Assembly: GCF_000374145.1 (NCBI RefSeq)
Contig: NZ_KB893654.1
Coordinates: 520,995-584,994 of the forward strand
DNA from: Neomegalonema perideroedes DSM 15528
Lineage (GTDB): Bacteria; Pseudomonadota; Alphaproteobacteria; Rhodobacterales; Rhodobacteraceae
DNA: 64,000 nt
Direction of reading: 5' to 3'
The notes under the pieces were generated by a model, which did no database searches, was not told the DNA's origin, and saw only the letters and a program-made list of their open reading frames with translations. How positions within the stretch are numbered: position 1 is the stretch's first letter; the number at the start of each line of letters is the position of its first letter. The position numbers and the translations under genes were made by a program. Shown here piece by piece: positions 14,719-57,933 of the stretch.

Positions 14719-14764
14719 GCGTTTTCACGACGCGCAGCCGTTCCGGCTTCGCTGGACGACGCTC
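14719..14764. repeat. REP-like imperfect palindromic element (copy a)
   Basis: gcgttttcacgacgcgcagc...gcttcgctggacgacgctc. Same family as the copies at 30547, 31361, 32681, 54917 and 57888. Lies in the potD-potA intergenic spacer. Confidence 0.6.
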
Positions 14765-15884
14765 AGGCGTTGGTGATCTTGTCGACGTATTCCTGAGTCA
14801 GCGGGGTGATCCACGGCGTGTCGGCCTGCCACCACCAGAGATTCGCCAGAGCCTCCGGCGTGTAGATCTCGGCGAAGGTCTTGGCGTAATCCTCGCCCGC
14901 ATGGGCGGCGGCCTCCACGGCGGCGGAGTTATAGCCGGTGTTGGCCACATGAAGCCCCGCCATCTCGCCCTCGTAGCAGGCGTTGATGAAGGCGTAGGCC
15001 TGATCCAGATTCTCGGCGCCGACGGGGATCGCCACGGAATCGAGCCAGGTCAGGCCGCCTTCTTTGGGCATGCGGTATTTCCACTTGGCGTCTTGGCGCG
15101 CGAGCAGGATGCCGGTGGTGTCCCAGGTCTGGCCGATGGAGCAGCCCTGCTGAGAAAAGGCGTTGCCGGCCTCGGTGGCGTTGTTCCAGAAGGCGCCGAT
15201 GTCGCCTTTGTTCTTGATGATGAACTCGGCGACCTTATCCCAGACGCGGCGGGCCTCGGCCTCGCTGGCGTAGATGTCGAGCATGCGGTTCGAGGGAACT
15301 TCGCCCGTGGCGTCGAGATAAAGCCCCACGCCCATGATGCCCGAACGCTGACGCAGCGCGGCGCTCTTCGCCTTGCCCGACCAGAGCGAGCCGTAAGAGA
15401 CGTCGGCGTCCGCGAGGTCATGGACGGAGCTGTCGAAGGTGACCGCCTCGGTGCCCCAGTTGAAGGGCAGAGCCACGCGCTTTCCGTCCTGCACCGCGCC
15501 GAGCGCGATGGAGTCGCGGACCATCGAGGGGATGATCTTCTCCATGTCGATCTTCGATTCGTCGATCTCCTGCAGCAGGAACTGATCGCCGTCGCGATAG
15601 CCCACCACGTTGGTGACGCTCGGGAAGATCACGTCGAAGCCCTTGCCGCCCGCGGCCTTGAGCTTCTGCTGCGCCTCGTCGTTGGAGCCGTAGGTCGAGA
15701 GGTTGACCTTGATCCCGGTCTTCTCCTCGAACCAGGCGATCTGGTTGTCCTGGATGTAATCGCCCCAGGCGAAGACGTTCACCGAGCCGGAGGAGGCCAG
15801 CGCGTCGCGCGCGCGCAGGACCGCAGGAGCGGCGAGGGCGGCGGCCGCGCCCTTCAGGACGAAACGGCGGTTGAATCTCGACAT
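14763..15884 (-). CDS. ABC transporter periplasmic substrate-binding protein (PotD/PotF-like)
   Basis: ORF 14763..15968. ATG at 15884 gives MSRFNRRFVLKGAAAALAAPAVL, a Tat/Sec-type signal. Spermidine/putrescine-binding protein family sequence. Confidence 0.85.
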   Translation of the reverse strand: MSRFNRRFVLKGAAAALAAPAVLRARDALASSGSVNVFAWGDYIQDNQIAWFEEKTGIKVNLSTYGSNDEAQQKLKAAGGKGFDVIFPSVTNVVGYRDGDQFLLQEIDESKIDMEKIIPSMVRDSIALGAVQDGKRVALPFNWGTEAVTFDSSVHDLADADVSYGSLWSGKAKSAALRQRSGIMGVGLYLDATGEVPSNRMLDIYASEAEARRVWDKVAEFIIKNKGDIGAFWNNATEAGNAFSQQGCSIGQTWDTTGILLARQDAKWKYRMPKEGGLTWLDSVAIPVGAENLDQAYAFINACYEGEMAGLHVANTGYNSAAVEAAAHAGEDYAKTFAEIYTPEALANLWWWQADTPWITPLTQEYVDKITNA

Positions 15885-16085
15885 GGGGCGTTCCCTTTTC
15901 TCTCCGGAGCCGCCTTTCCATAGCGGCTGGTCGCGCCATTGAAACCACCGCCTGCATGACCTGTCCATGACGTTTTCGCAAAAGAAAAGTCACAAGAGGC
16001 GCCTCCGAGGGGCTGCGGCCAGAGGCGCCCTGTCGCGCAGAGGGGAAAAGCTTTAGATTTCCTGCGTAAGAGGGCGGAAGGCGCG

Positions 16086-16670
16086 ATGACGAAGGAGAAC
16101 CGCGTGCGGTCGGCGAAAGACGCGAAGATTTGGACGGCCTGTCTCCGGAGGGGCCTTCTGCTGGCGGCGGGGCTCGGCGCGGGCTGGAGCGCGATTCCGT
16201 CGGCGCCGGCCTCGGCGCAGGTCTGGCTGCGCGAGGGCGAGCGGATTCAGGTGACTCCGGCGCCCGATCCCTCCAACCCTTTCGCGCCCCCTGAGGAGCC
16301 GCCGCCCGCGCCCGAGCTTCTGGAGGCGCCCGCGCCCGCCGCCCGCATGCGGGCGGGGGCAGAGGCCCATCTGCGCTTTCTCGACCGCCGGACCTCCACA
16401 AGGGGGGCTCTGGTCTCGCCGGTGGGCTCCACGGCGCGTTACGGCGGGCTGATCGTCGAGGTTCTGGCCTGCCATCGCGAGATCGACGGCGACGAATCCG
16501 CCGCCTTCCTGCGCATCCGCGAGGAGACCGGAGACGCCGCCGCAGCCCCGATCTTCTCCGGCTGGATCTTCGCCTTAAGCCCCTCGCTCTCGGCGCTGGA
16601 CCACCCGCGTTACGACGTCTGGGTGGCCGAATGCAGAACCGCCGAAGGATCGGAATCCGCCGCGAATTGA
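16086..16670 (+). CDS. DUF2155 domain-containing secreted protein
   Basis: ORF 16086..16670. Signal peptide. The conserved ...FLRI...IFSGWIFA...ALDHPRYDVWV..C pattern recalls DUF2155. Confidence 0.55.
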   Translation: MTKENRVRSAKDAKIWTACLRRGLLLAAGLGAGWSAIPSAPASAQVWLREGERIQVTPAPDPSNPFAPPEEPPPAPELLEAPAPAARMRAGAEAHLRFLDRRTSTRGALVSPVGSTARYGGLIVEVLACHREIDGDESAAFLRIREETGDAAAAPIFSGWIFALSPSLSALDHPRYDVWVAECRTAEGSESAAN

Positions 16671-17263
16671 CGGAACTCGCCTTTGCGCCGCAAAGCCGCC
16701 GCCAGCCGTCGCTGATATTCGGCGCGGGGGATCTCCGCGGCGCCGAAGCGGGCGAGGTGATCCGTCACGAATTGCGTGTCGAGCAGGTGGAAGCCGCCCG
16801 CCCTCAGCCGCGCGACGAGATGGACGAGGGCGATTTTGCTGGCGTCGGTTTCGCGGCTGAACATGCTCTCGCCGAAAAAGGCCGCGCCCAGAGACACGCC
16901 GTAAAGCCCGCCGGTCAGGCGCCCCTCGCGCCAGATTTCGAGGCTATGGGCGCCGCCCTCGCGATGGAGCGCGACATAGGCCTCGATGATCGGCCCGGTG
17001 ATCCAGGTGTCGGGCCGGGCGCAGGCCTCCATGACGGCGCGGAAGTCATGGTCGAGCCGGACCTCGTAGCCCCCTTGCTTGAGGGTCTTGGCCAGCCGGG
17101 CCGGGATATGGAAGGACTCCAGCGGCAGGATCCCGCGCGCCGGAGGGTCGAACCAGAGGACTTCCTCGCGGCGGGTCGAATCGCCCATGGGAAAGACGCC
17201 CGCCGCATAGGCTCGCCGCAAAAGCTCCGGCGTGATCCTCAACGGCGCGGCGCTCATGCTCAT
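16610..17263 (-). CDS. aat: leucyl/phenylalanyl-tRNA--protein transferase
   Basis: ORF 16610..17263. The sequence family is GVFPM...WFDP..RG...H....L.K... Confidence 0.85.
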   Translation of the reverse strand: MSMSAAPLRITPELLRRAYAAGVFPMGDSTRREEVLWFDPPARGILPLESFHIPARLAKTLKQGGYEVRLDHDFRAVMEACARPDTWITGPIIEAYVALHREGGAHSLEIWREGRLTGGLYGVSLGAAFFGESMFSRETDASKIALVHLVARLRAGGFHLLDTQFVTDHLARFGAAEIPRAEYQRRLAAALRRKGEFRQFAADSDPSAVLHSATQTS

Positions 17264-18606
17264 TCCGTCTGAGAGGCCAGCCAGCGCTCAAGCCAGTGGA
17301 TGTCGTAATCTCCGGCCTGAATATCGGGATTCTCGATCAGCTCCTCGAAGAGCGGCAGAGTGGTGTTCACCCCGTCCACCACGATCTCGCTCAGCGCCCG
17401 CCGCAGCCGCATGAGGCATTCGGCGCGGCTGTCGGCGTGGATGATCAGCTTGCCGATCAGGCTGTCGTAATAGGGCGGGATCCGATAGCCCTCGTAGATC
17501 GCCGAATCCAGACGCACCCCAAGCCCGCCGGGCGCGTGGAAATATTTGATCAGGCCGGGATTGGGGACGAAGGTCTTCGGATTCTCGGCGTTGATGCGGC
17601 ATTCGATGGCGTGGCCGCGCGGCTTGAGATCCTTCTGACGGAAGGAGAGCTTTTCGCCCGCCGCCACCCGGATCTGCTCGCGCACGAGATCCACGTCGTA
17701 GATGGCTTCGGTCACCGGATGCTCCACCTGAATGCGGGTGTTCATCTCGATGAAGTAGAAGCGTCCGTCCTCATAAAGGAATTCGATGGTGCCCGCGCCC
17801 AGATAGCCCAGCTGGCGGATGGCCGAGGCCACCGTCTCGCCGATCTCCTCGCGCTGGGCGGGAGTCAGGGCGGGGGAGGGGGATTCCTCCATCACCTTTT
17901 GATGCCGCCGCTGAAGCGAGCAGTCGCGCTCGCCGAGATGCACCACGTTGCCGTGGGAATCGGCGAAGAGCTGAACCTCGATATGGCGCGGCTTCTGGAG
18001 GTATTTCTCCAGATAAACCGCGTCGTCGCCGAAGGCGGCCTTGGCCTCCGCTCGGGCCGTGGCGAGGGCGCGCGGCAGCTCTTCAGCCGAGCGCGCGACC
18101 TTCATGCCGCGTCCGCCGCCGCCCGCCGCCGCCTTGACCAGCACCGGATACCCCATCTCGGCGGCGACGGCCAAAGCCTCGGCGTCGCTGTCGATTCCGC
18201 CCTCCGAGCCCGGCACCACCGGCACGCCGAGCCGGCGCATGGTCTCTTTGGCGGCGATCTTGTCGCCCATGAGGCGGATATGCTCGGCTTTGGGGCCGAT
18301 GAAGGTCAGGCCGTGCTCTTCGAGGATCTGGGCGAATTCGGCCTTCTCGGAGAGGAAGCCGTAGCCCGGATGCACCGCCTGAGCGCCGGTCAGCTCGCAG
18401 GCGGTGATCAGCGCGGGGATGTTCAGATAGCTCTGCGTCGCCGAGGGCGGCCCGATGCAGATGGATTCGTCGGCGAAGCGCACATGCATGGCCTCGGCGT
18501 CGGCGGTGGAGTGGGCCGCGACCGTGCGCACGCCCATGTCCTTGCAGGCGCGCAGGATGCGCAGGGCGATTTCACCGCGATTGGCGATCAGGATCTTGTC
18601 GAACAT
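17260..18606 (-). CDS. accC: acetyl-CoA carboxylase biotin carboxylase subunit
   Basis: ORF 17260..18606. MFDKILIANRGEIALRILRAC... ATP-grasp biotin carboxylase. ATGA overlap with aat. Confidence 0.95.
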   Translation of the reverse strand: MFDKILIANRGEIALRILRACKDMGVRTVAAHSTADAEAMHVRFADESICIGPPSATQSYLNIPALITACELTGAQAVHPGYGFLSEKAEFAQILEEHGLTFIGPKAEHIRLMGDKIAAKETMRRLGVPVVPGSEGGIDSDAEALAVAAEMGYPVLVKAAAGGGGRGMKVARSAEELPRALATARAEAKAAFGDDAVYLEKYLQKPRHIEVQLFADSHGNVVHLGERDCSLQRRHQKVMEESPSPALTPAQREEIGETVASAIRQLGYLGAGTIEFLYEDGRFYFIEMNTRIQVEHPVTEAIYDVDLVREQIRVAAGEKLSFRQKDLKPRGHAIECRINAENPKTFVPNPGLIKYFHAPGGLGVRLDSAIYEGYRIPPYYDSLIGKLIIHADSRAECLMRLRRALSEIVVDGVNTTLPLFEELIENPDIQAGDYDIHWLERWLASQTE

Positions 18607-18613
18607 CCCGACC

Positions 18614-19123
18614 TCACTCCACGATCATGAGCGGCGCGCCGTATTCGACGGGCGCTCCGTCGGCCACAAGGATGCGCCTGACCACGCCCGCGCGCGGCGC
18701 GGGGATGGCGTTCATGGTCTTCATCGCCTCGATGATGATCAGGGTCTGGCCCGCCGAGACCGTCGCGCCTTCCTTGACGAAGGGCTCGGCGCCGGGCTCG
18801 GCGGCGAGATAGGCCGTGCCGACCATGGGCGAAGGCACGCAATTGGGGTCTTTGGCGGGGTCGTTCTGGGCGGCGGGCGCCGGGGCCGCAGGCGCGGGCG
18901 CGGCGGCGGGGGCCGCGGCCGCCGGAGCGGCGGCGAGGCCGGGGGCTCCGGCGTAGATGATCTGCGGCGGCGCGCTGGAGCTCTGGCGCGAGAGGCGCAC
19001 TTCAAGCTCGTCGTCCTCGCCATATTCGCGCTTCACCGAAATCTCGGCGAGATCGGTCGTCTGGAGAAGCTCCGCGAGGGCGCGGATGAAGGCGACGTCG
19101 GATTCCGTCTTGTCTTTGCTCAT
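18614..19123 (-). CDS. accB: acetyl-CoA carboxylase biotin carboxyl carrier protein
   Basis: Internal start MSKDKTESD at 19123 of ORF 18614..19402. EAMKTMN biotinylation motif. Ala/Pro linker. Confidence 0.9.
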   Translation of the reverse strand: MSKDKTESDVAFIRALAELLQTTDLAEISVKREYGEDDELEVRLSRQSSSAPPQIIYAGAPGLAAAPAAAAPAAAPAPAAPAPAAQNDPAKDPNCVPSPMVGTAYLAAEPGAEPFVKEGATVSAGQTLIIIEAMKTMNAIPAPRAGVVRRILVADGAPVEYGAPLMIVE

Positions 19124-19588
19124 CGAGAGCTCCGGTTGATGGCGGCGCTCCTCGGCGGTTCCGCCTGAGCCGCAGGGAGGGCGCGCCGGAGATCCGCGAC
19201 GGAAGCGGCGCGCCGGGGCCTCAGGTCGCGCCTGAGGCCGCTCGGAGGGAAGAAGGGGAGACGCCTCCCGAGGCCGCGGGCGGCGAGGGAGGAAAGCGCG
19301 ACGAGGGTCGGGGAGCCGGAAAAATCCGGAGAAGACGGAGCGGAGCCCTGAGGCAGATGGGCGGAACGCGCCTCCGCCGCCATGCGATCCGCCATGTTCC
19401 ATCCTCTCCCTTTCGGCGTCGGCGCGTCATGGATCCCGCGCCTCGCGCCGCCCCGCGCGCTGGTCGGGGGCGTTCTTGTCGAGCCGCAAGCTCTAGCCGA
19501 GCCGCGCGCGGGGAGCAAGACCCGCTTTCCCTATGGGAAGGGCGCGAAAGGGGAGGAGGCGCCGGAGATCCGGGCCTCCCGCCTTTCC

Positions 19589-20377
19589 TCACTCCGCCCG
19601 GACGCCGGGCTCCTTGCCTTTGCGGGCCTGCTCGATGGCCGCGAGGATGTCGGGCGCGGGCAGATCGCCGCGCAGCAGCGTCGAGCCGATGGCGAAGGCG
19701 GGCGTGCCGTTGATGTCCAGCGTGCGGGCCAGCCGGTAGTTCAGCGTGATGAAGTCCTCGATGCGCGGATCGGCCATGGCGGCGGTCAGCTTGTCGGCGT
19801 CGAGCCCGGCCTGTTTGGCGAGGTCGAGGATGGTCGCGTCGTCCAGCTCTCCGTCATGGGTCATGAGCAGATCCTGAAGCGCGGAGGTCTTGTCCTCGTC
19901 CAGCCCGATGGAGGCGAGGGTGGCCTTGGCCGCCGAAACCGACTGCGGCCCGAGGATCGGGAATTCCTTGATCACGTAGCGGATGTTGCCGTCCGCCTCG
20001 ACGATGTCGAGGATCTTGCTGTGGGCGCGCTTGCAGAAGCCGCAGCGATAATCGAGGAACTCGACCAGCGTGACGTCGCCTTCGGGATTGCCCCGGATAT
20101 GGGAATGCTTGTCGAAATACAGCGCGTCGGCGTTGTCGGCGAGGAGCTTGGTCTCCAGCGAAGCGGCCTCGGCGCGCTGTTTGGCGTCATAGGCCTGAAG
20201 CGCCTCGATCACGACCTCGGGATTGCTCCGCAGGAAGGCGCGGATCTCCTCATGCAGGGCGGTCTTCTCGGCCTCGTCGAGCGCCTCGGCCCGGGGCGCG
20301 GCGGCGAAGAGCGCCAAGCCCGAAACGGCGGCGAAGAGAGGGGCGGCGAGGACGAGACGGCGAAGAGAGGGACGCAT
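19589..20377 (-). CDS. DsbA-family thiol:disulfide oxidoreductase
   Basis: ORF 19589..20449, start MRPSLRRLVLAAPLFAAVSG at 20377 (signal). CGFC thioredoxin-fold active site. Confidence 0.8.
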   Translation of the reverse strand: MRPSLRRLVLAAPLFAAVSGLALFAAAPRAEALDEAEKTALHEEIRAFLRSNPEVVIEALQAYDAKQRAEAASLETKLLADNADALYFDKHSHIRGNPEGDVTLVEFLDYRCGFCKRAHSKILDIVEADGNIRYVIKEFPILGPQSVSAAKATLASIGLDEDKTSALQDLLMTHDGELDDATILDLAKQAGLDADKLTAAMADPRIEDFITLNYRLARTLDINGTPAFAIGSTLLRGDLPAPDILAAIEQARKGKEPGVRAE

Positions 20378-20466
20378 GCGGGGCTCCTGCGGGGGGATGG
20401 GGGGGCGCGTCCGCCCAAGATCGAAAATCCGGGGCGGAAGACGGATCATCCTTGCGCCTAATTACG

Positions 20467-22112: not shown

Positions 22113-22898
22113 ATGACGAAGACGCCCTCGCCCGCCGCAGACCGCAAAGCGCCGAAGACGAAGGCGCCCGCCGCCAAGACCGCCCCAACCGTCGCGTCCA
22201 AGGCCGTCGCGCCCAAGATCGCCAAAGCTCCGAAGACGCTCGCCGCGCCGAAAGCCGAGAAGCCCGTCGCTCCGAAGAAAGCCGCCGCGCCGAAAGCCGT
22301 GAAGGCCCCCGCCGCGCCCAAGGCGGCGAAGGCTCCCGCCGCGCCGAAAACCGTGAAGGAGGCCGCTCCGGTGAAATCCGCCGCCAAGCCCGCCGTGAAA
22401 AAGGCCGAAGCTCCGAAGAAAGCCGCCGCGCCTAAGGCCGTGAAGGCCGTCGCCGCGCCTAAGGCGGCGAAGGCTCCCGCCGCGCCGAAAACCGCCAAAG
22501 TCGCCGCCCCCAAGGCTGTGAAGGTCGCCGCGCCTAAGGTCGCCAAAGCGCCCGCCGCGCCTAAGGCCGTGAAGGCCGCCGCTCCGGCGAAATCCGCCGC
22601 CAAGCCCGCCGTGAAAAAGGCCGAAGCTCCGAAGAAAGCCGCCGCGCCCAAGGTCGTGAAAGCCCCCGCCGCGGCGAAGGCCGCCGCGCCGAAAGCCGTG
22701 AAGGCTCCCGCCGCGCCGAAGAGCGCGACCAAAAGCGTGGCCGTCCGCAAGGCAGCGCCCAAGGCCGCCGCTCAGACGCCTCCGGATTCGGTGAAGGTGG
22801 TGGCGCGCAAGGCGCAGGCCAAGAGCGTCGCCGCGCCCGGAGCCATCGGCGTCGCGAAGGTCAAGCGCGGCAAGCCCGACGGCGCCTCCCTGCACTGA
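22113..22898 (+). CDS. Lys/Ala/Pro-rich histone H1-like / AlgP-like repeat protein
   Basis: ORF 22113..22898. Protein is almost entirely KAPAA/KKAAAPK repeats. AT-rich promoter with aaggacc RBS upstream. Contains an internal ~219-bp DNA duplication. Confidence 0.65.
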   Translation: MTKTPSPAADRKAPKTKAPAAKTAPTVASKAVAPKIAKAPKTLAAPKAEKPVAPKKAAAPKAVKAPAAPKAAKAPAAPKTVKEAAPVKSAAKPAVKKAEAPKKAAAPKAVKAVAAPKAAKAPAAPKTAKVAAPKAVKVAAPKVAKAPAAPKAVKAAAPAKSAAKPAVKKAEAPKKAAAPKVVKAPAAAKAAAPKAVKAPAAPKSATKSVAVRKAAPKAAAQTPPDSVKVVARKAQAKSVAAPGAIGVAKVKRGKPDGASLH

Positions 22899-29985: not shown

Positions 29986-30525
29986 TCAGCCGAGCGCCGC
30001 ATCCACGGCGGCGAGCAGGCGCGGATCCTCCGGCGTCACGCCCGAGGCGAAGCGCGCCAGAGGAACGCCGTCGCGGCCGATGAGGAATTTCTCGAAATTC
30101 CACAGGACTTCGCCCGGCGCTCCCGGCCTGATCCCATAGCGCGCGAGATCAGCGGCGGTCGCTGCGCCGTCGAGCGCCTCCGGCAGGGCTTGGGTCAGCG
30201 CGGCATAAAGCGGATGCTTCTCCGGCCCCGTCGCGACGATCTTAGCGAACATGGGGAAATTCACGCCATAGGTCGCCGAGCAGAATGCGGCGATTTCGGC
30301 TTCGCTTCCGGGCTCTTGTCCGCCGAAGTCGTTGGCGGGAAAGCCGAGGATCTCGAAGCCTTGCGCGGCCTTAGCTTCGTAAAGCGCCTCCAGCCCGGCG
30401 TATTGCTTCGTGAAGCCGCATTTCGAGGCCGCGTTGACGATCAGCAGAACCTTCCCCGCATGAGCGGAGAGGCTGTCTTGCGCGCCGTCGATGCGCGTCA
30501 GAGGGATTTCGGCGAGAGCGGTCAT
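29986..30525 (-). CDS. glutathione peroxidase
   Basis: Internal start MTALAEIPL at 30525 of ORF 29986..30795. NAASKCGFT active site, FPANDFGGQEPG, WNFEKFL motifs. Confidence 0.9.
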   Translation of the reverse strand: MTALAEIPLTRIDGAQDSLSAHAGKVLLIVNAASKCGFTKQYAGLEALYEAKAAQGFEILGFPANDFGGQEPGSEAEIAAFCSATYGVNFPMFAKIVATGPEKHPLYAALTQALPEALDGAATAADLARYGIRPGAPGEVLWNFEKFLIGRDGVPLARFASGVTPEDPRLLAAVDAALG

Positions 30526-30546
30526 AGAGGGGCCTTTCGCTGGGAG

Positions 30547-30720
30547 GAGCGTTTTCCAGCGAAGCTGTAAAGCTTCGCGTCGTGAACACGCGACCAGACA
30601 AGAAGCAGGAGCGTTTTCCAGCGAAGCTGTAAAGCTTCGCGTCGTGAACACGCGACCAGACAAGAACCGGGAGCGTTTTCCAGCGGAGCCGCAAGGCTTC
30701 GCGTCATAAAAACGCGACCA
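30547..30720. repeat. tandem array of three REP-like elements (62-bp period)
   Basis: The unit gagcgttttccagcgaagctgtaaagcttcgcgtcgtgaacacgcgaccagacaagaa is repeated at 30547 and 30609. A degenerate copy sits at 30671. Each unit is an imperfect palindrome. Confidence 0.8.
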
Positions 30721-30809
30721 GCTCGCATATGAGCCTCGCCCCCGCCGGGGCGCAACCCCTCTCCGGGTTTGCCGGGCCTCCGGCCGCCCTCGCAAGGCTG
30801 TGAGCCCTC

Positions 30810-31307
30810 TTGTCGGATGCTCCGGATTCGCTCAATCTATGGGCGTTCATGGAGGCTGAAATGCACTTCAAGCGCATCTGGGGGGCCTCGCCCGCCCGCA
30901 AGCTGATGACCGTGGCCCTGATCCTGCTCTTCGCGTCGCAATTCTTCATCTATCAGAATTACAGCGGCCATTCGATGATGACCGTGGGGATCGGCTTCGA
31001 GAGCACCACCATCACCCATTGGTTCGGACAAGAGGAAGGCGCGGGCTGGGAGCTGCACTCCCATGCTTATGTGATCATCGCCGCCCTTGCGCTGATCTAT
31101 CTCAATGAGATCTCCGAGACCGAATTTTGGTCCCGATGGGGCTGGTGGCTGACCATTCCCCTCTTCTGGATCGCCTCTTCTCCGGGCGGGATCTCCGCGC
31201 CGGGCGCGAAGATGGGCATGGCCGCGGTTCTGCTGGCTCTGGCCGCCGCCGTGGCGAATCTCTTCGAGCGCCGGGCCGCGAGGCGGGCGCTTTCGCCTTC
31301 ATCGTGA
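30810..31307 (+). CDS. hypothetical small membrane protein
   Basis: ORF 30810..31307, with several hydrophobic helices. Somewhat lower GC than its surroundings. True start may be a later Met. Confidence 0.45.
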   Translation: MSDAPDSLNLWAFMEAEMHFKRIWGASPARKLMTVALILLFASQFFIYQNYSGHSMMTVGIGFESTTITHWFGQEEGAGWELHSHAYVIIAALALIYLNEISETEFWSRWGWWLTIPLFWIASSPGGISAPGAKMGMAAVLLALAAAVANLFERRAARRALSPSS

Positions 31308-31360
31308 AGCTAAAGGCCCGGAGCCCCTCGCAGGGCTCCGGACCTCGCTTCAGCCTGAGC

Positions 31361-31406
31361 GCGTTTTCACGACGCGAAGCCGAAGCGGCTTCGCTGGAAA
31401 ACGCTC
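31361..31406. repeat. REP-like element (copy c, inverted orientation)
   Basis: gcgttttcacgacgcgaagc-cgaagcg-gcttcgctggaaaacgctc. It is the reverse complement of the 30547 unit. Confidence 0.75.
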
Positions 31407-32596
31407 TAGGAATCGAGCTTCGCCACGTCGAGCAGCCCCTTGGGGCCGCCATAGACGATCAGCCGCTCGACCTTGCTCGCCACGGCCTCCAGAGCCTCCA
31501 GCTCCTTGAGCCGCATCATGGCGGGGTTCTCCGTCATGAGCTTCGCCGTGTTGAGCAGCGAGCGCGTGGCGGCGGTCTCCTCGCGGCGACGCACGACGTT
31601 GGCCTCGGCCTCCTTCTCGGCGGCGACGACGCGATTGAGGATCTCGCGCATCTCGCCGGGCAGGATGACGTCCTTCATCTCCACCGCCCCGACCTCAAGG
31701 CCGATGGCGGCCATTTCGGCGCGCAGCTTGGCGGCGGCGGCCTCGTCCACGGCGACCCGCTCGGAGAGCAGGGCGTCGAGGGTCCGGGCGCTGACCGTGG
31801 CGCGCATGGCCATCTGAATCGCCAGATGCAAAGCCTGCTCATAGCCGCTCGCGGCGGTCAGCACGAGCTGCGGATCGGCCACCCGATAGCTCGCGGCGGC
31901 GCTGAGCCTCAGGCTCACGCGGTCGGCGGTCATGATGTCCTGACCGGAGACGTCGAGGCTGCGCGTCCGCAGATCCACGAGATGCGCCGTCACGAGGTCG
32001 TTCGGCGACCAGAAGCCGCGCAGACCCGCGCCGTAGCCGCCCTGATGGACGCCGCCCACGAAGATCTGGACGCTCTGGCCCTGCTGCGGATTGACGATCA
32101 CGGCGGCCGCGATTCCGCCCGGCGCCTTGAGCAGGCGCGGAGCCAAAGCGGCGGGGATCTCCTCGCCGTCGCGGGGCGTGAGCTTCTCCATGCGGAAGGG
32201 GCCGAGCGCCGTCCAGTAGGCGACGCGGGATTCCGGCGGCAAAGCCGCGTAAAGCGCTTCTGCGCGATAGATCAGACCCACTTCGCCGGGGCCGGTGACC
32301 ATCTCGGCCACATCCTCGCCCGCGCGGCCCTCGCGGAGCATCGCCAGCGCATAGGCCGAACGCACCTCCGGGGCGGCGGACAAAGTCTCGACGGCCAGTC
32401 CGAATTCTTCGAAGCGGCCCGTCAGGGCGTGTTCGCCGGGGCCGAAGATTCCCAGAGCCCGGCCGTTCTTCAGAGGCATGGCGCGCTCGGTCTGGTCCAC
32501 CGAGAGGACGGCGCGGCCGAGCAGGCCGTCGAGCGCGCTCGCCGAGATGCGGGAGCGGCCCATGCTTTGGGTCTTGGAGGCGAAAAGCCGGGACAT
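31406..32596 (-). CDS. SPFH/band-7 domain protein (stomatin/prohibitin-like)
   Basis: ORF 31406..32596. C-terminal half carries the SPFH core and a coiled coil (VILPGEMREILNRVVAAEKEAEANVVRRRE). Confidence 0.7.
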   Translation of the reverse strand: MSRLFASKTQSMGRSRISASALDGLLGRAVLSVDQTERAMPLKNGRALGIFGPGEHALTGRFEEFGLAVETLSAAPEVRSAYALAMLREGRAGEDVAEMVTGPGEVGLIYRAEALYAALPPESRVAYWTALGPFRMEKLTPRDGEEIPAALAPRLLKAPGGIAAAVIVNPQQGQSVQIFVGGVHQGGYGAGLRGFWSPNDLVTAHLVDLRTRSLDVSGQDIMTADRVSLRLSAAASYRVADPQLVLTAASGYEQALHLAIQMAMRATVSARTLDALLSERVAVDEAAAAKLRAEMAAIGLEVGAVEMKDVILPGEMREILNRVVAAEKEAEANVVRRREETAATRSLLNTAKLMTENPAMMRLKELEALEAVASKVERLIVYGGPKGLLDVAKLDS

Positions 32597-32680
32597 GATC
32601 GGAATCCTGAAGTTGGGCGATGCTGAGAGCGTCGTCCGATCATGCCTGATCGTTCACACGCTCTAACTCTTTATTTCGTC

Positions 32681-32726
32681 GCGCTTTCACGACGCGAAAC
32701 CTGATCGGTTCCGCTGGCGGGCGCTC
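32681..32726. repeat. REP-like element (copy d, degenerate)
   Basis: gcgctttcacgacgcgaaac...ccgctggcgggcgctc. Same half-site organisation as the other copies. Confidence 0.5.
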
Positions 32727-33293
32727 TGTCGTCGCATGGAGCCTGAAGGGTTGGAGGTTGAAAGAGAGAGGCGCGGGGCCTCCGAAGCCTCAGGGGGCTT
32801 TCGCCTGAAGGGAGGGAGAAGACCTGAGGCGGGGCCTGCGCCGCCTCCCGCGCCGAGGCTCGGGATGGGGGCGGAGGCTTGGCCTCAAGCCGTCGCCGTC
32901 TTCGGCGGAGGCGCGGCCTTGCGCCGCCTCGCCCGACCCGAAGGCCCTGCGCGGCGGAGAGGCTCCGAAGACCCTGCTGAGCAGAATCACGGATTCGAAC
33001 CGACAACGCCCTTCCTGTGGGAAAGGCGGCTCGCCAAATGAGCATGAGCAGAGGGGTGGGCCAATGTTCTCCGCGTGGCGGGGAACGGGGGAACGACGTC
33101 GGATCTTCCGGACGGAACACGGCAGGGAAAAGCCCTCCGCGCCGGTGCGCCCCCGATCTCTCGGGAAGACGCGACGATTCCGGCGAGCCGAAGCATCGTG
33201 GCGGCAGAAAGCCGCGAATCGCCGCTTCTTGCAAGATGTTCCGAGGGGGCGGCGCAGGAAATCTCAAAAGGGGACGATTGCGTTGCGTGAAAG

Positions 33294-47829: not shown

Positions 47830-49359
<1,530 letters not shown>

Positions 49360-50560: not shown

Positions 50561-50563
50561 GGA

Positions 50564-50860
50564 TTGCGGGTCATGCTGAAGGTCGTCGCTCAGGATTTCA
50601 TCAGGCCGGAGGCGCTGGAGATCGTCGCGCCGCTCTATCGGGAGCTGGTCGAGAAGACCCGACAGGAGAAGCTTTGTCTGGCCTATGATCTTTTCGTGGA
50701 CCAGAAAGATCCCGGACATTTCGTCTTCATCGAGCGATGGCCGGATCGGGCCGCCCTGAAGGCGCATTGCGAAACGGAGCATTTCCGGCGATTGGTTCCT
50801 CTGATCAACGCCCATCAGAGGCGGGATCCGATCATCACGCTGATGGACGCCTTCGCCTGA
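50564..50860 (+). CDS. antibiotic-biosynthesis-monooxygenase (ABM) domain protein / putative quinol monooxygenase
   Basis: ORF 50564..50860, ~95 aa. ferredoxin-like ABM fold pattern (FVFIERWPDRAALKAHCETEHF). Confidence 0.6.
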   Translation: MRVMLKVVAQDFIRPEALEIVAPLYRELVEKTRQEKLCLAYDLFVDQKDPGHFVFIERWPDRAALKAHCETEHFRRLVPLINAHQRRDPIITLMDAFA

Positions 50861-50903
50861 CCTGCGGAGCGCGCCCTCCGCGCAAATCCTGAGGGAGGGG
50901 CTC

Positions 50904-52009: not shown

Positions 52010-52019
52010 GGCGGCGTTC

Positions 52020-52655: not shown

Positions 52656-52662
52656 GACGGAC

Positions 52663-52971
52663 TCACAGGCCGCTTCCGGCGGGCTGAAGCGCGGCGAGCT
52701 TGGCCTCGGCTTCAGCGAGGCGACGCTCGGCGCGGGCCTTTTCGCGACGCTCTCCGGCTTCCCGGATCCATTCCAGCACGACGCCGATCAGCAGGCCCAG
52801 AAGGGCCGCCCCGATCACGAGGGCCGCCAGCGGAAGCTCGACTTGAGCCGGACTGACGATCCCCAGACCAAGCGGATCGAGCCGCACCGTCACCGGATGC
52901 GGATTCATCATGATGAGCGCCGCCAGAGGCGTCGCCAGCAAGGCCAGAAGGATCAGCTTCAGATAGGTCAC
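52663..52971 (-). CDS. LapA-domain (DUF1049) inner-membrane protein
   Basis: ORF 52663..52971. Two TM helices plus a basic/coiled tail. This is the conserved alphaproteobacterial position between ihfB and trpF. Confidence 0.65.
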   Translation of the reverse strand: MTYLKLILLALLATPLAALIMMNPHPVTVRLDPLGLGIVSPAQVELPLAALVIGAALLGLLIGVVLEWIREAGERREKARAERRLAEAEAKLAALQPAGSGL

Positions 52972-53013
52972 CCCGAACTCCCGTTGCCCAGAGGGGGCGC
53001 GGGGCTTTCAGCC

Positions 53014-53310
53014 TCACGCCTCCGGATTGAAATCGACGTTGATGCGCTCGCGCAGCTCCTTGCCCGTCTTGAAGAAAGGCACGCGCTTTTGCGGCACCGA
53101 CACGGTTTCGCCTGTGCGCGGATTGCGGCCTTGGCGCTCCTCGCGCTGTTTGACCGAAAAGGCGCCGAAACCGCGCAACTCCACCCGGTCCCCTCGCGTG
53201 AGGGCGGCCGAGATTTCGTCGAACACGGTGGCGACCACCCGCTCCACGTCCCGCTGATACAAATGCGGATGACGTTCCGCAAGCGCATCGACGAGTTCGG
53301 ACTTGATCAT
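53014..53310 (-). CDS. ihfB: integration host factor subunit beta
   Basis: Internal start [17 protein letters not shown] at 53310 of ORF 53014..53445. HU/IHF fold ([24 protein letters not shown]). Confidence 0.9.
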
Positions 53311-53653
53311 ATGGCGGCTTCCCCTCTTTGTCGCGCGCGGTTTGCGACGCGCGATGTCCGCAGCTTTCACGCGCCTGCCGACGCGAAATCCGCATGCCCC
53401 TCTCACTTGTGCGCATCCGCGTTTCGGCTGTCGCTCGAACCGCAAGACGCCCGCCCGTCGCGCGCTCCCCGAGCGCGATAGGTGGTCGAAACCTCAATCC
53501 TTTGTGTTTATTCAAGCCACTATGCGCATTTGACGGCTCAACGTCAACCGCGTCTTGACGAAATCGGAAGGGAGGGGCTCGGGAGCATCGCCTGTGTCGT
53601 TCGGAGATCGCATCCCCCGAAAAACTTAACGATTCCGCGGGTCTCGGAGCTTT

Positions 53654-54802
53654 TCAGGGGGTTGGGGCCCGCTCGGCGGGGGTCAGACGCCAGACCCGGC
53701 CCGGAGAGCCGTCTTCGATGGCCCAGACCGAGCCGTCCGGGGCGGTCTCCACGTCGCGGATTCGGGTCTCGAAACTCCAGCGGTCGAGCTGACGGGCGCC
53801 CTCGGCCCGGTCGAAGGCCACGCGGACGATTCCCTCTCCCGCCAGAGCCCCGATCAGCGCCGAATCCCGCCAGTCGGGGAAGAGGTCGCCTTGGTAGAAG
53901 GTCAGGCCCGCCGGAGCGATCACCGGGGCCCAATAGAGGGCGGGCTCCGTGAATTCGGGGCGGGCGGGGGGCTTCGGAATGGCCCGTCCGCCGTAATGGA
54001 CGCCGTAAGAGACCTCCGGCCAGCCGTAATTGGCGCCGGCCTTGATCAGATTCAGCTCGTCGCCGCCCTGAGGCCCCATCTCATGCGACCAGAGCCGCCC
54101 GTCCGGCGCGAAGGCGAGGCCGTAGGGGTTGCGGTGGCCGGTGGACCATATGAGCGCCCGCACGCCGCCTTCGGCCTCCCAAGGGTTGCCCGGGGCCGCC
54201 GCGCCGTCGAGGGTCAGGCGCAGGATCTTGCCGAGCGCCTGATCCGGGTCTTGCGCGGGGGCCATCCTCTGGCGGTCGCCGACGGTGAGGAAAAGACTCT
54301 CGCCCGAGGGATCAAAGGCGATGATCGCGCCGGGATGGCCTCCGCCGCCCTTGGGCTCCTGACGCCAAAGCACGGCGAGATCCTCCAGCCGGGCCGCGCC
54401 CTCGGCCTCCACGAGCTTCGCCCGCGCCAGAGCGGGGCCGCTTCCGCCTTCGCCGGGCTCGGCGTAGGTGAAGTAGATCTCGCCCGTCTCGGCGAAGCGC
54501 GGCGAGGGGGCCGCATGGAAAAGCCCGTTCTGGCCGCCATAGGCCACAGGCGGAACGCCCGAAACCTTCAGCTTCTCGCCCGTCGGCCGGAGGAGGAGGA
54601 GCGCGCCCTCATGCTCCGTGACCAGAGCCCGCCCGTCCGGCAGGAAGGCCAGAGCCCAAGGCGAGTTCATTTCGGCGATCTCGGTCAGAACGAAGGGGCG
54701 CGTCTCGGAGAAGGGGGCCTCGCCGAAATTCGGGGCCTCTTGGGCTTGTGCGGCGAAGCCCCAGAGGGCGAGGGCGGCGAGCGGAGGAATCGGGCGGCGC
54801 AT
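53654..54802 (-). CDS. PQQ-dependent soluble sugar dehydrogenase (glucose/sorbosone dehydrogenase family, YliI-like)
   Basis: ORF 53654..54802. Signal peptide. Beta-propeller repeats with a conserved HRNPxG-type segment (STGHRNPYGLAF). Confidence 0.75.
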   Translation of the reverse strand: MRRPIPPLAALALWGFAAQAQEAPNFGEAPFSETRPFVLTEIAEMNSPWALAFLPDGRALVTEHEGALLLLRPTGEKLKVSGVPPVAYGGQNGLFHAAPSPRFAETGEIYFTYAEPGEGGSGPALARAKLVEAEGAARLEDLAVLWRQEPKGGGGHPGAIIAFDPSGESLFLTVGDRQRMAPAQDPDQALGKILRLTLDGAAAPGNPWEAEGGVRALIWSTGHRNPYGLAFAPDGRLWSHEMGPQGGDELNLIKAGANYGWPEVSYGVHYGGRAIPKPPARPEFTEPALYWAPVIAPAGLTFYQGDLFPDWRDSALIGALAGEGIVRVAFDRAEGARQLDRWSFETRIRDVETAPDGSVWAIEDGSPGRVWRLTPAERAPTP

Positions 54803-54916
54803 GCGGGATCTCCTGAAATCGGGGCCTTCAGGCGGGCGAGGCCGGAAAGCCGGGGTTTCGGGGGCGGAGCCCTTGTCCGACCAAATCGGCCAAACGCTCC
54901 GGCTTCTTGTATGGTC

Positions 54917-54960
54917 GCGTTTTCGCGACGCGAAGCTCTCTGCTTCGCTGGAAAACGCTC
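54917..54960. repeat. REP-like element (copy e)
   Basis: gcgttttcgcgacgcgaagc-tctctg-cttcgctggaaaacgctc. Confidence 0.7.
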
Positions 54961-54996
54961 CGAGGCCGCGCCGTCCTCAAGGGGCTTTCGCGCGCT

Positions 54997-56112
54997 TCAG
55001 CGAATGGCCCAGAGCACGCCGCGGCGGCCGCTCAGAGCTTCGGCCGAACCGCTCACGCCGAGTTGCTCGGCGATGCGTTCGATCAGGAGCTTTTGCCGCG
55101 GGGCGGCGGGAGAACGATTGCGGATCTCCAGATCCTCGGCGATCTCTTTTTCGCTCTCCAGCCAGGCGACGGCCTCCTGCTCGCCGCCGAGCCCGTCGAT
55201 GAGACGAGCCTCCAGCGCCTGACGGCCCGTGAAGACGCGTCCGTCGCCCACGGAGCGCGCTTCATTGTCGTTCATCTGGCGACGCTCCTTCACGAGGTCC
55301 AGAAACCAGGCGTAGGAATCGTTCACGACGGCTTGATCCGCCGCCACCGCCGCCGGATCCACCGGCTGGAAGGGCGAGGGCGCCGCCTTGAGCGGGGCGC
55401 TTTTGACCTCGATCATCTCCACGCCGAGACGCTCGGCCAGCTCGTAGAAATTCGGCGATTGCGAGATCACGCCGATGGAGCCCGTGATGCTGTTCCCGCG
55501 CGCGAGCAGATGATCCGCCGCCAGAGCCGCGATATAGCCGCCCGAAGCCGCCTGTTCGCCCATCACCGCCACGAGGGGCTTGGCCTCCGCGACGACGCGC
55601 AGGGCTTCGTAAAGCTCCTCCGAGCCGACCACCGTGCCGCCGGGGCTGTCGATGCTCAGGACCACCGCCTTGACCGCCTCCTCCTCGGCGAGGTCGCGCA
55701 GGAAGGCGTCGCGCAGGCGGTCGCTCGTGATCACGTCGACCACGCGGATGCGGGCGATATGGTCGGAGGCGGCGGCCTTGCCGAGGGTCTGCAGCGAATT
55801 GGAGAGGAAGGCGCCGCCGATCAGCAGCAGAGTCAGCACGCCGAAGAGCCGCCAGCGGCCTCGGCTGCGCCTGACCCTCTGGCGCTCCTCCTCGCCTTGC
55901 AGCGCGGCGGCGAAGGCGGCGGTCAGGGCCGCCGGATCGCTCGCCGGAGCGGCGGGCCCGGCCCCGAGGCGCGGCGCGGCGCCGAAGCCCGCGGGCGCGG
56001 TTCTCGCTCCGGAGGAGAGGGAGGGGGGCGCCGAGGGGACGCCCGGCGCGGGCGGCGGAGCGCCGCCCTCGGAGGAGTAGCCGGAGGGCGGCGGAGAGGG
56101 AGGCGTGGTCAT
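54997..56112 (-). CDS. sppA: signal peptide peptidase SppA (36K type)
   Basis: ORF 54997..56112. ClpP/crotonase-fold S49 peptidase (VVLSIDSPGGTVVGSEE...AASGGYIAA). Pro/Ala-rich N-terminus, so the true start may be downstream. Confidence 0.8.
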   Translation of the reverse strand: MTTPPSPPPSGYSSEGGAPPPAPGVPSAPPSLSSGARTAPAGFGAAPRLGAGPAAPASDPAALTAAFAAALQGEEERQRVRRSRGRWRLFGVLTLLLIGGAFLSNSLQTLGKAAASDHIARIRVVDVITSDRLRDAFLRDLAEEEAVKAVVLSIDSPGGTVVGSEELYEALRVVAEAKPLVAVMGEQAASGGYIAALAADHLLARGNSITGSIGVISQSPNFYELAERLGVEMIEVKSAPLKAAPSPFQPVDPAAVAADQAVVNDSYAWFLDLVKERRQMNDNEARSVGDGRVFTGRQALEARLIDGLGGEQEAVAWLESEKEIAEDLEIRNRSPAAPRQKLLIERIAEQLGVSGSAEALSGRRGVLWAIR

Positions 56113-56551
56113 GGCGAGGGCGGACTCCGAAAGAACAGCTTGAATATCCGCGTGAAGTTAAGAACCGCCGCCTGAAGAAGCAATGCGAAATCACGCGAGG
56201 GCGGCGCTTCTCTCGCGGATATGGCGAACGCGCTCAAAGGTTTGGCGCGAGGCCGGGACGAAAGTCGGGCATGAAGGAGGGCGGGGGGAGGGGGCGCAAT
56301 CCTTCCTTATGCGGAGATTTCGCGCCTGAGGCCCCGGAGCGCCGCCCAAGGCCGCCGGGCGCTTCGCTCAAAGCAGGGGGGCGGAGCAGGGGCCGGATCG
56401 CCGGCTGGATCGGGGGGCTGGCTCTGGGGAGCCGGAAAATGCGCCTTGCGGCGGAAAAGAGCGTTTTCGCGTCTCGGGAAAAGGTTTTAAGAAGGCGCGC
56501 CCGCCGCGTCGAGCTTCGGCGCGGGGATCGCGGGCGCGAGGAGGGACGGAT

Positions 56552-57194
56552 CATGCGCGTCGTGGTGGTCGATTACGGCTCCGGCAATCTGCATTCGGCG
56601 CTCAAGGCGCTGGAGCGGGCGGGGCGCGACGCAGGCTTGAATCTCGACGTGGGGCTGGCCGCCACGGGCGAGGAGGTCGCCGCCGCCGACCGCATCCTTT
56701 TGCCGGGCGTGGGCGCCTTCGCGGCCTGCGAAGAAGGTCTGAGGGCGCGTCCCGGCGTGGTCGAGGCTCTGGAGGAGGCGGTTCTCCAGCGCGGCAGGCC
56801 CTTTCTCGGGGTCTGCGTGGGAATGCAGCTTCTGGCGGAGAAGGGGCTGGAGTTCGGCGAACATCCCGGCCTGAACTGGCTCGGCGGCGAGGTGCGGCGG
56901 CTGACGCCCTCCGATCCGGCGCTGAAGATCCCGCATATGGGTTGGAACGCGCTGCGGATCCTGCGGCCTCATCCCCTCTTCGCGGGGCTGGCGCCGGAGA
57001 CTCAGGCCTATTTCGTCCATTCCTATCATCTCGTCCCGGCGCGGGCGGAGGACGTGGCGGCTCAGGCCGATTACGGCGGAGCGGTCACCGCCGCCGTGGC
57101 GCGCGACAACCTCGCCGGATTGCAGTTCCATCCGGAGAAGTCTCAGGCGGCGGGGCTCCGGATCCTGACGAACTTCCTGAACTGGCGGCCCTGA
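56552..57194 (+). CDS. hisH: imidazole glycerol phosphate synthase glutaminase subunit
   Basis: ATG at 56552 (MRVVVVDYGSGNLHS) within ORF 56271..57194. GVCVGMQ catalytic Cys. HPEKS. Confidence 0.9.
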
Positions 57195-57254
57195 CCTCCG
57201 GGGCGGGCGGCGCGCTCTCCGGCTGCGGAGAGCGCGCGGGCGCGGATGGGCGGC

Positions 57255-57755
57255 TTAATCGGCCTGCACGTAGACCGGGCGGGCGCGCAGAGCGTCCGAA
57301 GCCCATCCGCCTTCATGGACGCGGGAATCGTCGCGCCAGACGCGGCATTTGAAATCGGCGATCTCCCAGGAGCAGGAGGCCGCGACCGCGGCCGGGGCGC
57401 TCACCGCGCAATCGGCCGCGCCGCAGATGGTCTTGCCGCTGGCGGTCTGGGAGCAGCTGTTGCAGCCGATCTGCGTCTGCTGGCATCCGGCGGCGAAGAG
57501 GGCCTCGATCCAATGGGCGTCGAAGGCGGCGCTGTGGATGAGCGTGCCCGGCTCGGTGCTGGCCTCGCTGTAGATGGTCGCCGCGCCGCAGACGAGCGGG
57601 GCGGGAGAGGCCGCGGCCTCCTCCTGCGCGACGGTCGGGGACGCGGCGGGAGCCTCTTCGGCCAGCGCGGGCGGCGCGAGCAGCGCCGCCGCTATGGCGG
57701 CGAGCGCGGCGCGTTTGAAGATCGCGGGGCGGGCTGGCGTCATGGCGGCTCCCAT
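57255..57755 (-). CDS. secreted Cys-rich hypothetical protein
   Basis: ORF 57255..57755. Signal peptide. At least nine Cys in the mature part. Sits on the opposite strand between hisH and hisA. Confidence 0.45.
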   Translation of the reverse strand: MGAAMTPARPAIFKRAALAAIAAALLAPPALAEEAPAASPTVAQEEAAASPAPLVCGAATIYSEASTEPGTLIHSAAFDAHWIEALFAAGCQQTQIGCNSCSQTASGKTICGAADCAVSAPAAVAASCSWEIADFKCRVWRDDSRVHEGGWASDALRARPVYVQAD

Positions 57756-57887
57756 CGGGCGGCTCCTGTCAGGCGTCTTATTTGAGCTTCGGGCGTCGGA
57801 TAAAGGCGAATTTGCGGCGCGAAAGATGAACGAAAGCTTTCATTCCGTATACAGTAAAGCGGGCGGCCTGACCTTTCGCGCGCCCTT

Positions 57888-57933
57888 GAGCGTTCTCCAG
57901 CGAATCCGATCAGGCTTCGCGTCGTGAAAATGC
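57888..57933. repeat. REP-like element (copy f)
   Basis: gagcgttctccagcgaatc-cgatcag-gcttcgcgtcgtgaaaatgc. Confidence 0.7.

Follow-up and report, generated by a model that had tools for sequence, protein, structure and literature searches.

Which kind of element stands behind the imperfect palindromes that recur between genes of Neomegalonema perideroedes DSM 15528, and how do such repeats come to lie where they do? The question is raised by a 64,000-nucleotide stretch of this genome (contig NZ_KB893654.1, positions 520,995 to 584,994; here called the window), in which a palindrome of ~46 nt occurs in eight copies where ~0.05 would be expected by chance. The window has a G+C content of 68.3%, its gene content is housekeeping, and it contains no transposase gene. 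A first-pass annotation, made from the letters alone, had assigned the copies to the REP/BIME type (repetitive extragenic palindromes and bacterial interspersed mosaic elements). Our analysis revealed that the palindrome is one arm of a larger two-arm unit, and the elements are probably non-autonomous mobile DNA of the alphaproteobacterial CIR/RIME type, which has recently multiplied in N. perideroedes. Insertion polymorphism between species, the two-arm anatomy, conserved base pairing, an enrichment of TA and CTAG at the flanks, the abutment of stop codons, a bias in orientation and a wide distribution were all observed.

Anatomy and copies of the element

The eight copies located by the first-pass annotation were recovered both by half-site matching and by a sequence profile. 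Half-site A (GAGCGTTTTCCAGCGAAGC) has seven matches in the window at up to three mismatches against 0.05 expected, and half-site B (GCTTCGCGTCGTGAAAACGC) has eight matches against 0.01 expected. A profile hidden Markov model (HMM) built from the eight copies returns exactly these eight, with E-values between 1e-13 and 1e-17, and nothing else of significance. The copies are distributed over six loci, given here with their neighbouring genes and open reading frames (ORFs):

14661-14764, minus strand: composite element with arm 1 (14719-14764), linker and a variant arm 2 (14661-14686) that forms a perfect 11-bp stem; its two first bases lie within the TGA stop codon (14763-14765) of the solute-binding-protein gene; located between a solute-binding-protein gene (14763-15968, minus) and an ABC ATPase gene (13515-14612, minus).
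30547-30724, plus strand: head-to-tail array of three arm-1 plus linker units (arm 1 starting at 30547, 30609 and 30671) with a 62-nt period and a terminal GCTC; located in the divergent gap between a glutathione peroxidase gene (29986-30528, minus) and a 165-aa ORF (30810-31307, plus).
31357-31406, minus strand: solo arm 1 (GAGCG...GCGCTC; palindrome at 31361-31406), which joins the TA before it to make up the stop codon TAG (31406-31408) of a slipin/SPFH gene (31406-32596, minus).
32627-32726, minus strand: composite element with arm 1 (32681-32726), linker and arm 2 (32627-32663), just upstream of the slipin gene start.
54867-54960, minus strand: composite element with arm 1 (54917-54960), linker and a shortened arm 2 (54867-54899); located between an sppA-like gene (54997-56112, minus) and a glucose/sorbosone dehydrogenase gene (53654-54802, minus).
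57888-57987, plus strand: composite element with arm 1 (57888-57933), linker and arm 2 (57951-57987), upstream of and sense to a His_biosynth gene (58063-58803, plus).

The three-copy tandem array was confirmed by Tandem Repeats Finder (30545-30721; period 62, 2.9 copies, 92% matches), and the flanking gene calls agree with the earlier placement of the 14719 copy between the binding-protein and ATPase genes. The claim that all copies are intergenic also holds for the window, where two of them touch a stop codon by 1-2 nt; at all 29 loci examined, the elements are either intergenic or overlap no more than a stop codon. Two suspected degenerate relatives turned out to be noise: the candidate at 56459-56472 has an E-value of 5.9 and a common string of only 15 nt (GAGCGTTTTCGCGTC), and the candidate at 53341-53388 has E-values of 7.8-16.

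The full unit, found at four of the six loci, spans 94-104 bp in the window and consists of an arm-1 hairpin, an A-rich linker (GACCAgACAAGAAnnn) and an arm-2 hairpin (GGAGCGTTTGAACGATCC-loop-GGATCGGAAAACGCTCC). The palindrome initially taken as the unit is a real hairpin, but it corresponds to arm 1 only, and the linker and the second hairpin had been missed at these four loci. Every form of the element starts with GAGC and stops with GCTC, the ends reading GAGCGTTTTCC...GGAAAACGCTC. The termini, (CT)AGAGCGTTTTCC ... GGAAAACGCTCT(AG), are inverted repeats of ~10-12 nt, in which variants on the left side are compensated inside arm 1. Arm length is 46-50 nt. In arm 1, a conserved asymmetric internal loop (CCA / GTCGYG) lies between the outer stem of 8 bp and the inner stem of 8-9 bp.

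The predicted capacity of the half-sites to form a stem-loop is supported by compensatory changes and by folding energies below those of shuffled sequences. The arm-1 model combines two stems of 8 bp, outer and inner, with a C-G pair and a bulged A, and its pairing reaches 95% across 33 distinct copies, compared with only 33-48% in slid controls. Seven pairs are altered on both sides, a value that was reached by none of 500 shuffles; at pair 7-46, G-C is replaced by A-U in 13 copies. The internal loop together with the inner stem (CCAGCG ... CGCGTCG) is invariant, and arm 1 also allows a small alternative hairpin (GTCGCG-AAAA-CGCGAC). Arm 2 is 85% paired over 15 copies, and its pair 19-29 changes from UA to CG in six of them. 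Folding gave z-scores of -4.5 when the solo copy was treated as DNA, -5.4 when the array was treated as RNA and, more weakly, -1.8 for the composite at 57888.

The arrays of the window and of the sister species contain the same linker within one array and different linkers between arrays, which indicates that they have grown by local tandem duplication and not by repeated insertion. The solo arm 1 and the head-to-tail arm-1 arrays are derivatives of the full unit. A CRISPR-like nature of the array at 30.5 kb was rejected because its 17-nt "spacers" are alike in every unit, the repeat is a long palindrome, and cas genes are missing. The sole inverted pair, formed by the 30547 array and the 31357 copy, brackets the 165-aa ORF, which was considered as a candidate REP-associated tyrosine transposase (RAYT). 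This candidate was discarded, as the ORF has no Pfam hit and its orthologue in the sister species is not flanked by repeats. An Rfam scan of the window detected no family at gathering thresholds, and the array and its relatives produced chance-level matches only.

Insertion sites and spread among genomes

The slipin and SppA proteins of the window have 100% identity to N. perideroedes proteins. Comparison loci were reached via homologues of three window proteins. The syntenic ones belong to a sister species represented by the metagenome-assembled genome (MAG) Neomegalonema sp. STC_130 (loci L052 and L064, ~38 kb), to a third species (L054-56 and L066-67) and to more distant relatives (L057 and L059). 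Scans with the arm HMMs gave no match to either arm in any of these syntenic loci. All five comparable window loci lack the full element in the relatives, with conserved flanks, while the 57888 locus lies outside the comparison. This implies that gain and loss of the element are fast relative to speciation. The filled and empty alleles are listed below, with junctions marked by hyphens:

Site a, slipin 3' end: filled, ..TCC TAG AGCG..GCGCTCAG GCTGAAG, protein ending LDS-stop; empty, ..ACCGAAGGCTGAAG, protein ending LDTEG-stop (L052) or LESE-stop (third species, L054).
Site b, upstream of slipin: filled, GACGA-CA-GAGCG...CGCTC-TC-AGCATCGC; empty, GACGA-TA-AGGTTCGC and GCCGA-TA-GCTCGC.
Site c, array: filled, GGGAG-GAGCG...ACCAGCTC-GCATATG; empty, GGGGAGAGCCCTGCATATG, the array being absent from the orthologous 157-nt spacer of STC_130 (L052).
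Site d, sppA spacer: filled, full composite; empty, a 74-nt spacer with a 19-nt GAGC..GGGCTC stretch.
Site e, potD-potA: filled, CCT-GAGCG...CGCTC-AGGCG; empty, CCTGAGGCG, in both STC_130 (L064) and the third species (L066).

At site b, a single TA is located exactly at the junction in both outgroups, which fits a TA duplication upon insertion. The slipin C-terminus is shorter where the element has inserted, with the stop codon at the element edge (window 31406-31420 compared with L052 11180-11200 and L054 11200-11215). Landing on stop codons is frequent enough to rewrite the C-terminus of a protein, in this case from LDTEG-stop to LDS-stop. In the 74%-identical relative L057, positions 3405-3435 carry the 19-nt sequence GAGCTTGAAGCGCGGGCTC right after the sppA stop, followed by the right flank of the window element (CGCC...). 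This stretch is possibly a deletion remnant, i.e., it may reflect loss rather than gain at the sppA site.

Flanks, stop codons and orientation were evaluated for 29 elements from the window and the other loci examined; the gene calls flanking the window copies were corrected for the orientation count, and the TA counts at the element ends are our own reading of the aligned copies. A TA is found directly 5' of GAGC at 11 of 26 independent 5' ends, mostly as CTA, with T alone at six more, and directly 3' of GCTC at ~9 of 17 3' ends, mostly as TAG. Overall, TA or CTAG flanks about 40-50% of the ends; most ends without TA are one substitution off (CA, TG or TT). The dinucleotide TA is depleted in the window (619 seen vs. 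1603 expected, ~1% of positions), and CTAG is present only six times in 64 kb, three of these at ORF stop codons, including the slipin stop abutted by the element. Ten of the 29 elements reach into the stop codon of a long, co-directional upstream ORF with high G+C content at third codon positions (TAG-AGCG, TGA-GCG or TGA-AGCG), and in four further elements gctCTAg supplies the TAG of a convergent ORF.

Two elements, at L044 4377-4479 and L032 6119-6221, are wedged exactly between convergent genes, and both TAG stops consist of the flanking TA plus the terminal G or C of the element. This arrangement suggests an ancestral CTAG that was shared by overlapping stop codons.

Among the 14 elements located between same-strand genes, 12 are in sense orientation. 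In the window, the orientation tracks the local gene direction (minus at 14.7, 31.4, 32.7 and 54.9 kb; plus at 30.5 and 57.9 kb), and the bias is not simply a replication-strand effect. The possibility that antisense elements act as intrinsic terminators, considered as an explanation for the bias, was unsupported by a simple terminator scan.

The family is neither window-specific nor genus-specific. An exact-pattern scan of a collection with one genome per species, which excludes the window, detected 18 loci in the STC_130 MAG and true members also in a Beijerinckiaceae MAG, a Kaistia MAG and Bradyrhizobium sp. AUGA SZCCT0176, while the remaining single hits were chance palindromes. With at least 18 loci in STC_130 and homologues in other alphaproteobacterial orders, the repeats indeed form the dispersed family proposed by the first-pass annotation, and local duplication is ruled out as the cause of their similarity. 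When the window was compared with the same collection, only its repeats matched, some with 100% identity over 50 nt; identical 50-nt copies are found at unrelated loci and in another species. Short-read Logan contigs of N. perideroedes (L049) break inside the elements, as is expected for a multi-copy exact repeat.

A BLAST search of plasmids with the Neomegalonema version gave no match. With the Rhizobiales versions, the two-arm element was found in Bradyrhizobium and Xanthobacter plasmids, arm 1 in plasmids and megaplasmids of Methylobacterium, Asticcacaulis, Bosea and Chelatococcus, and, in S. meliloti pSymB, a stretch of 32 nt that matches arm 1 in its 5' half. The plasmid copies that were read are CTAG-bounded modules, and one Xanthobacter locus is ordered arm 2 - arm 1 - arm 2. 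In a metagenome scan, no more than two hits were true members, and each was of the Rhizobiales type. The two-arm layout is common to STC_130, Bradyrhizobium, Xanthobacter and Asticcacaulis, and homologues of the same architecture occur in the latter three genera, in Beijerinckiaceae, in Kaistia and on two metagenome contigs.

On the Bradyrhizobium barranii plasmid NZ_CP096252.1, copies of the Rhizobiales version at 63750-63855, 107041-107146 and 112652-112757 are 98-100% identical and embedded in IS-dense DNA (IS, insertion sequence). Two of them sit 120-235 nt from identical IS1380 transposase genes; here, IS may use the element as a target, or larger duplicated segments may carry it along. 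Weak Rfam matches to the Brucella small RNAs (sRNAs) CI27 and CI408 were obtained at L060 3888-4030 and L063 1-209. The CI27 match in L060 overlaps the element-bearing region (3961-4100), and the matches in L063 lie ~1.3 kb upstream of the element (1501-1606). The overlap in L060 hints that CI27 may contain a repeat of the CIR/Bru-RS type.

Mode of movement and competing explanations

How could such an element multiply in a genome dense with genes? We propose that it would preferentially insert at TA within CTAG-like sites, which in this 68% G+C genome are very rare and largely represented by stop codons. With G as its first and C as its last base, the element would rebuild TAG on both sides when inserted at the TA of a stop codon. 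The rebuilt TAG would keep the gene intact, the insertion would be tolerated, and stop codons would thus serve as safe landing sites. The mover might be a trans-acting, TA-duplicating DDE transposase similar to IS630 or IS5/IS427. IS630 prefers TA within CTAG. After insertion, the element would perhaps be transcribed in sense within 3' untranslated regions (UTRs) or intercistronic spacers, where both hairpins could hinder 3' exonucleases in a REP-like manner, including in the potD-potA spacer. By analogy, stabilization of mRNA 3' ends or differential operon expression by the elements is plausible.

A generalization of this mechanism is offered far more tentatively, and we would rather expect it to fail in some part. 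It states that CIR/RIME-type repeats might be stop-codon-safe mobile elements, which home to the rare TA/CTAG sites (mostly stops) of a high-G+C genome, rebuild TAG for one or both genes, wedge between convergent genes, and are moved by an enzyme that reads the hairpin arms and not terminal inverted repeats.

Several results weigh against mobile DNA of the CIR/RIME type that is moved in the way proposed above. A clean target duplication is seen only at site b, i.e., at one of five sites, while the other four (a, c, d and e) either are ambiguous or have no TA. The ancestral potD site (TGAGGCG) contains no TA and shows 3-4 nt microhomology to the element end, and the "empty" alleles of the array and sppA loci include GAGAGCCCT and GAGC..GGGCTC, respectively, which are possible remnants of a deletion. 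A search of the loci examined for a parent IS, as segments of 0.5-3 kb with matching ends, returned only the window's own repeat pairs, and no IS with matching ends was detected in three 50-kb stretches (150 kb) of a Bradyrhizobium plasmid, in which element copies lie in IS-rich DNA. The one IS630 copy examined on an element-bearing Bradyrhizobium plasmid has different ends (GAGGTCGCGTC...). The simple scan predicted no intrinsic terminators on either strand. In Neomegalonema, GANTC is present in only 1 of 14 arm-2 copies and 1 of 30 arm-1 copies. By our reading, GATTC is present in the arm-2 loop of 7 of 10 homologues outside this genus, the carriers being Asticcacaulis, Xanthobacter, Bradyrhizobium, one Beijerinckiaceae locus and two metagenome contigs. 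The lineage with the highest density of the family is the one that has lost the GANTC hallmark.

The pattern of pairing belongs to the same side of the balance. Compensation stays inside one arm: the left-terminus variant GAGCATTTTCC is paired by GAAAATGC within the same arm and not by the right terminus. This fits a hairpin-reading enzyme better than a classical DDE transposase that reads terminal inverted repeats. In addition, stem mismatches of the G.U type (10) are about as numerous as those of the A.C type (11), giving no sign of selection on a sense RNA in individual copies. The similar counts indicate that individual copies simply decay, and the pairing is probably selected at the level of propagating copies.

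Intra-arm compensation is also the best argument for some hairpin-reading enzyme, and it leads to a rival explanation in which the repeats are REP/BIME elements that are kept and moved by a RAYT reading each hairpin as single-stranded DNA. The compensation per arm, combined with the invariant asymmetric internal loop, is what an HUH enzyme of this kind would impose, and the strong orientation bias fits a strand-specific insertion. The repeats are short, palindromic and intergenic, with one copy between binding-protein and ATPase genes, and their two hairpins, which lie on one strand and are similar in base sequence, look like the left and right ends of miniature elements derived from IS200/IS605. 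Nevertheless, we consider this explanation unlikely. The window, the syntenic loci with Pfam annotation (~80 kb) and the STC_130 loci picked because they carry the repeat (~0.15 Mb) yielded neither a Y1/RAYT gene nor any other transposase gene; the RAYT gene that the first-pass annotation had suggested looking for did not appear in these sequences. A crude scan for HUH...Y motifs in the ORFs of the examined loci retrieved only long unrelated proteins in unrelated taxa. Moreover, multiple copies are arranged head to tail and not as inverted doublets, a GTAG-like 5' tetranucleotide is replaced by a 5' flank that is (C)TA, T or variable, TA is found on both sides and not at the 5' side alone, and the orientation tracks the local gene direction and not one replichore direction. 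The REP-associated RAYT groups 2 and 3 have been characterized in Enterobacteriaceae and Pseudomonas, and group 1 is described as rare in Alphaproteobacteria (PMC5581495). From the initial REP/BIME assignment, the description as dispersed, intergenic, hairpin-forming mosaic repeats can be retained, but the ~100-bp two-arm unit, the head-to-tail arrangement and the lack of a GTAG-type motif do not agree with it.

Another explanation considers the elements as genomic binding sites for proteins, either linked to CcrM methylation or bound by a nucleoid protein, as proposed for CIR, which are spread by recombination instead of a transposase. The GATTC in the arm-2 loop of most relatives outside Neomegalonema, the invariance of the arm-1 internal loop and inner stem, and the microhomologies or remnants of element ends in the empty alleles are in line with this idea. 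It is nonetheless quite improbable, because GANTC is missing from 13 of 14 arm-2 and 29 of 30 arm-1 copies in Neomegalonema, where the family is most abundant, and because insertions occur at unrelated sites with sharp GAGC...GCTC boundaries. The loss of GANTC in an expanding lineage argues that the CcrM site is unneeded for spread.

Vertically inherited, non-mobile cis-regulatory RNA structures (mRNA stabilizers, attenuators or sRNA genes) that are alike through common function would account for the sense orientation in transcription units, the stable hairpins, the covariation and the 3' UTR or intercistronic positions, but this explanation is hardly credible and largely refuted by the five orthologous sites that lack the full element between conserved flanks, and it is also contradicted by the identical 50-nt copies at unrelated loci and in another species, by the lack of an Rfam family and of an excess of G.U over A.C, and by arrays, solo and composite variants that behave as repeat DNA.

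Mobile DNA of the CIR/RIME type is a known kind of element, and the filled and empty sites, together with the behavior at stop codons, make the open question of its movement directly testable. If the generalized stop-codon mechanism is true, the recent burst in Neomegalonema and the clean empty sites in the sister species provide a system for solving CIR/RIME mobility. The loci offer material for finding the enzyme and its target rule, and for testing the hairpins as setters of mRNA 3' ends in operons like potD-potA. A practical effect of the repeats is that they fragment short-read assemblies and create spurious small ORFs in annotations.

Three other features of the window attracted attention. 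The spacer between the GHMP-kinase and slipin genes contains ~560 nt of non-coding sequence (32728-33293, minus-strand orientation) that is unusually well kept, being 83% identical to STC_130 (L052 9402-9945); its only Rfam match is at chance level, and the stretch might represent a long leader or an RNA that has yet to be described. An unrelated tandem repeat at 63658-63794 consists of three 46-nt units (AAAACGAATCCGGACGCCCGCCTTGGCGGACGCCCCGTCTCCCCCC), each with GAATC (GANTC) and a short CCGCC-TT-GGCGG palindrome, and no copy was found in any other locus examined. Finally, an ORF at 22113-22898 (plus strand) is mostly composed of 27-nt and 114-nt tandem repeats (Tandem Repeats Finder, 22274-22721) encoding units rich in Ala, Lys and Pro (AAPKAVKA...), and its predicted product appears like histone-H1-like or AKP-repeat proteins.

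Relation to known bacterial repeat families

With REP/BIME elements, the present family shares imperfect palindromes in intergenic or intercistronic spacers, mosaic combinations and a possible protection of mRNA 3' ends. According to work cited within PMC5082802, a REP at 15 nt or less from a stop codon affects translation. REPs, in contrast, measure ~35 nt, form inverted pairs, have a conserved tetranucleotide on the 5' side and possess a linked RAYT gene; the element showed none of these traits in the sequences examined.

Correia/NEMIS and other TA-duplicating miniature inverted-repeat transposable elements have TA at both ends and are intergenic, co-transcribed and hairpin-forming (Table 1, PMC2229807). 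The likeness to the present family includes a size of 100-155 bp, TA at the ends, intergenic location and hairpin formation. However, long terminal inverted repeats let those elements fold end to end, whereas the two arms of the present unit fold separately and only ~10 nt are common to its termini; furthermore, the target duplication is clean at one of five sites only and no parent IS was found in the loci searched. The multi-palindrome repeats Br-REP1 and Br-REP2 of Bradyrhizobium japonicum are also alphaproteobacterial; they are transcribed 3' UTR repeats whose copy number differs strongly between related species (Hahn et al. 2016, PMC5082802). They were rejected as the same family, as their consensus sequences differ (CCGGAATCTCGAGATTCCGG etc.), and no literature description matching the sequence strings of the element was found.

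The architecture fits CIR and RIME better than classical REP elements, CIR1-4 and RIME1/2 being compared by description only. The review by Delihas (PMC2229807) summarizes CIR, the Caulobacter CcrM-associated intergenic repeats (Chen & Shapiro 2003), as ~110 bp long, with two inverted-repeat arms and a linker, TA at the termini and a CcrM site (GANTC) in the terminal loop, strictly intergenic and highly conserved across Alphaproteobacteria; it also states that CIR folds arm by arm, whereas other bacterial repeats fold end to end. The present element similarly has a two-arm unit of 94-104 bp with a linker, TA at the termini, an intergenic location and a distribution over Hyphomicrobiales, Caulobacterales and Neomegalonema. 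In its relatives from Asticcacaulis (Caulobacteraceae), Xanthobacter and Bradyrhizobium, the arm-2 terminal loop even contains GATTC. The Neomegalonema copies differ in that nearly all are without GANTC, their loops are shorter, and solo arms and head-to-tail arm-1 arrays occur.

RIME1 and RIME2 (Rhizobium-specific intergenic mosaic elements), reportedly described by Osteras and colleagues in 1995, are said to be intergenic mosaic elements of 108-109 bp with two large palindromes and many copies in rhizobia, and to be restricted to Rhizobiaceae. The architecture of the element matches this definition, and the 32-nt arm-1 match on pSymB of S. meliloti is a further likeness, but the present family is wider than the reported range of RIME. 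Judged by this description, RIME1/2 probably belong to the same superfamily as the element.

Two-arm intergenic repeats (CIR, RIME and probably Bru-RS) have been known in Alphaproteobacteria since the 1990s, and their mobility mechanism and function were left open by a 2008 review (PMC2229807). By its architecture, rather than by comparison with published sequences, the element of N. perideroedes is best placed among the repeats of the CIR/RIME kind, as a GANTC-less member that has recently expanded.

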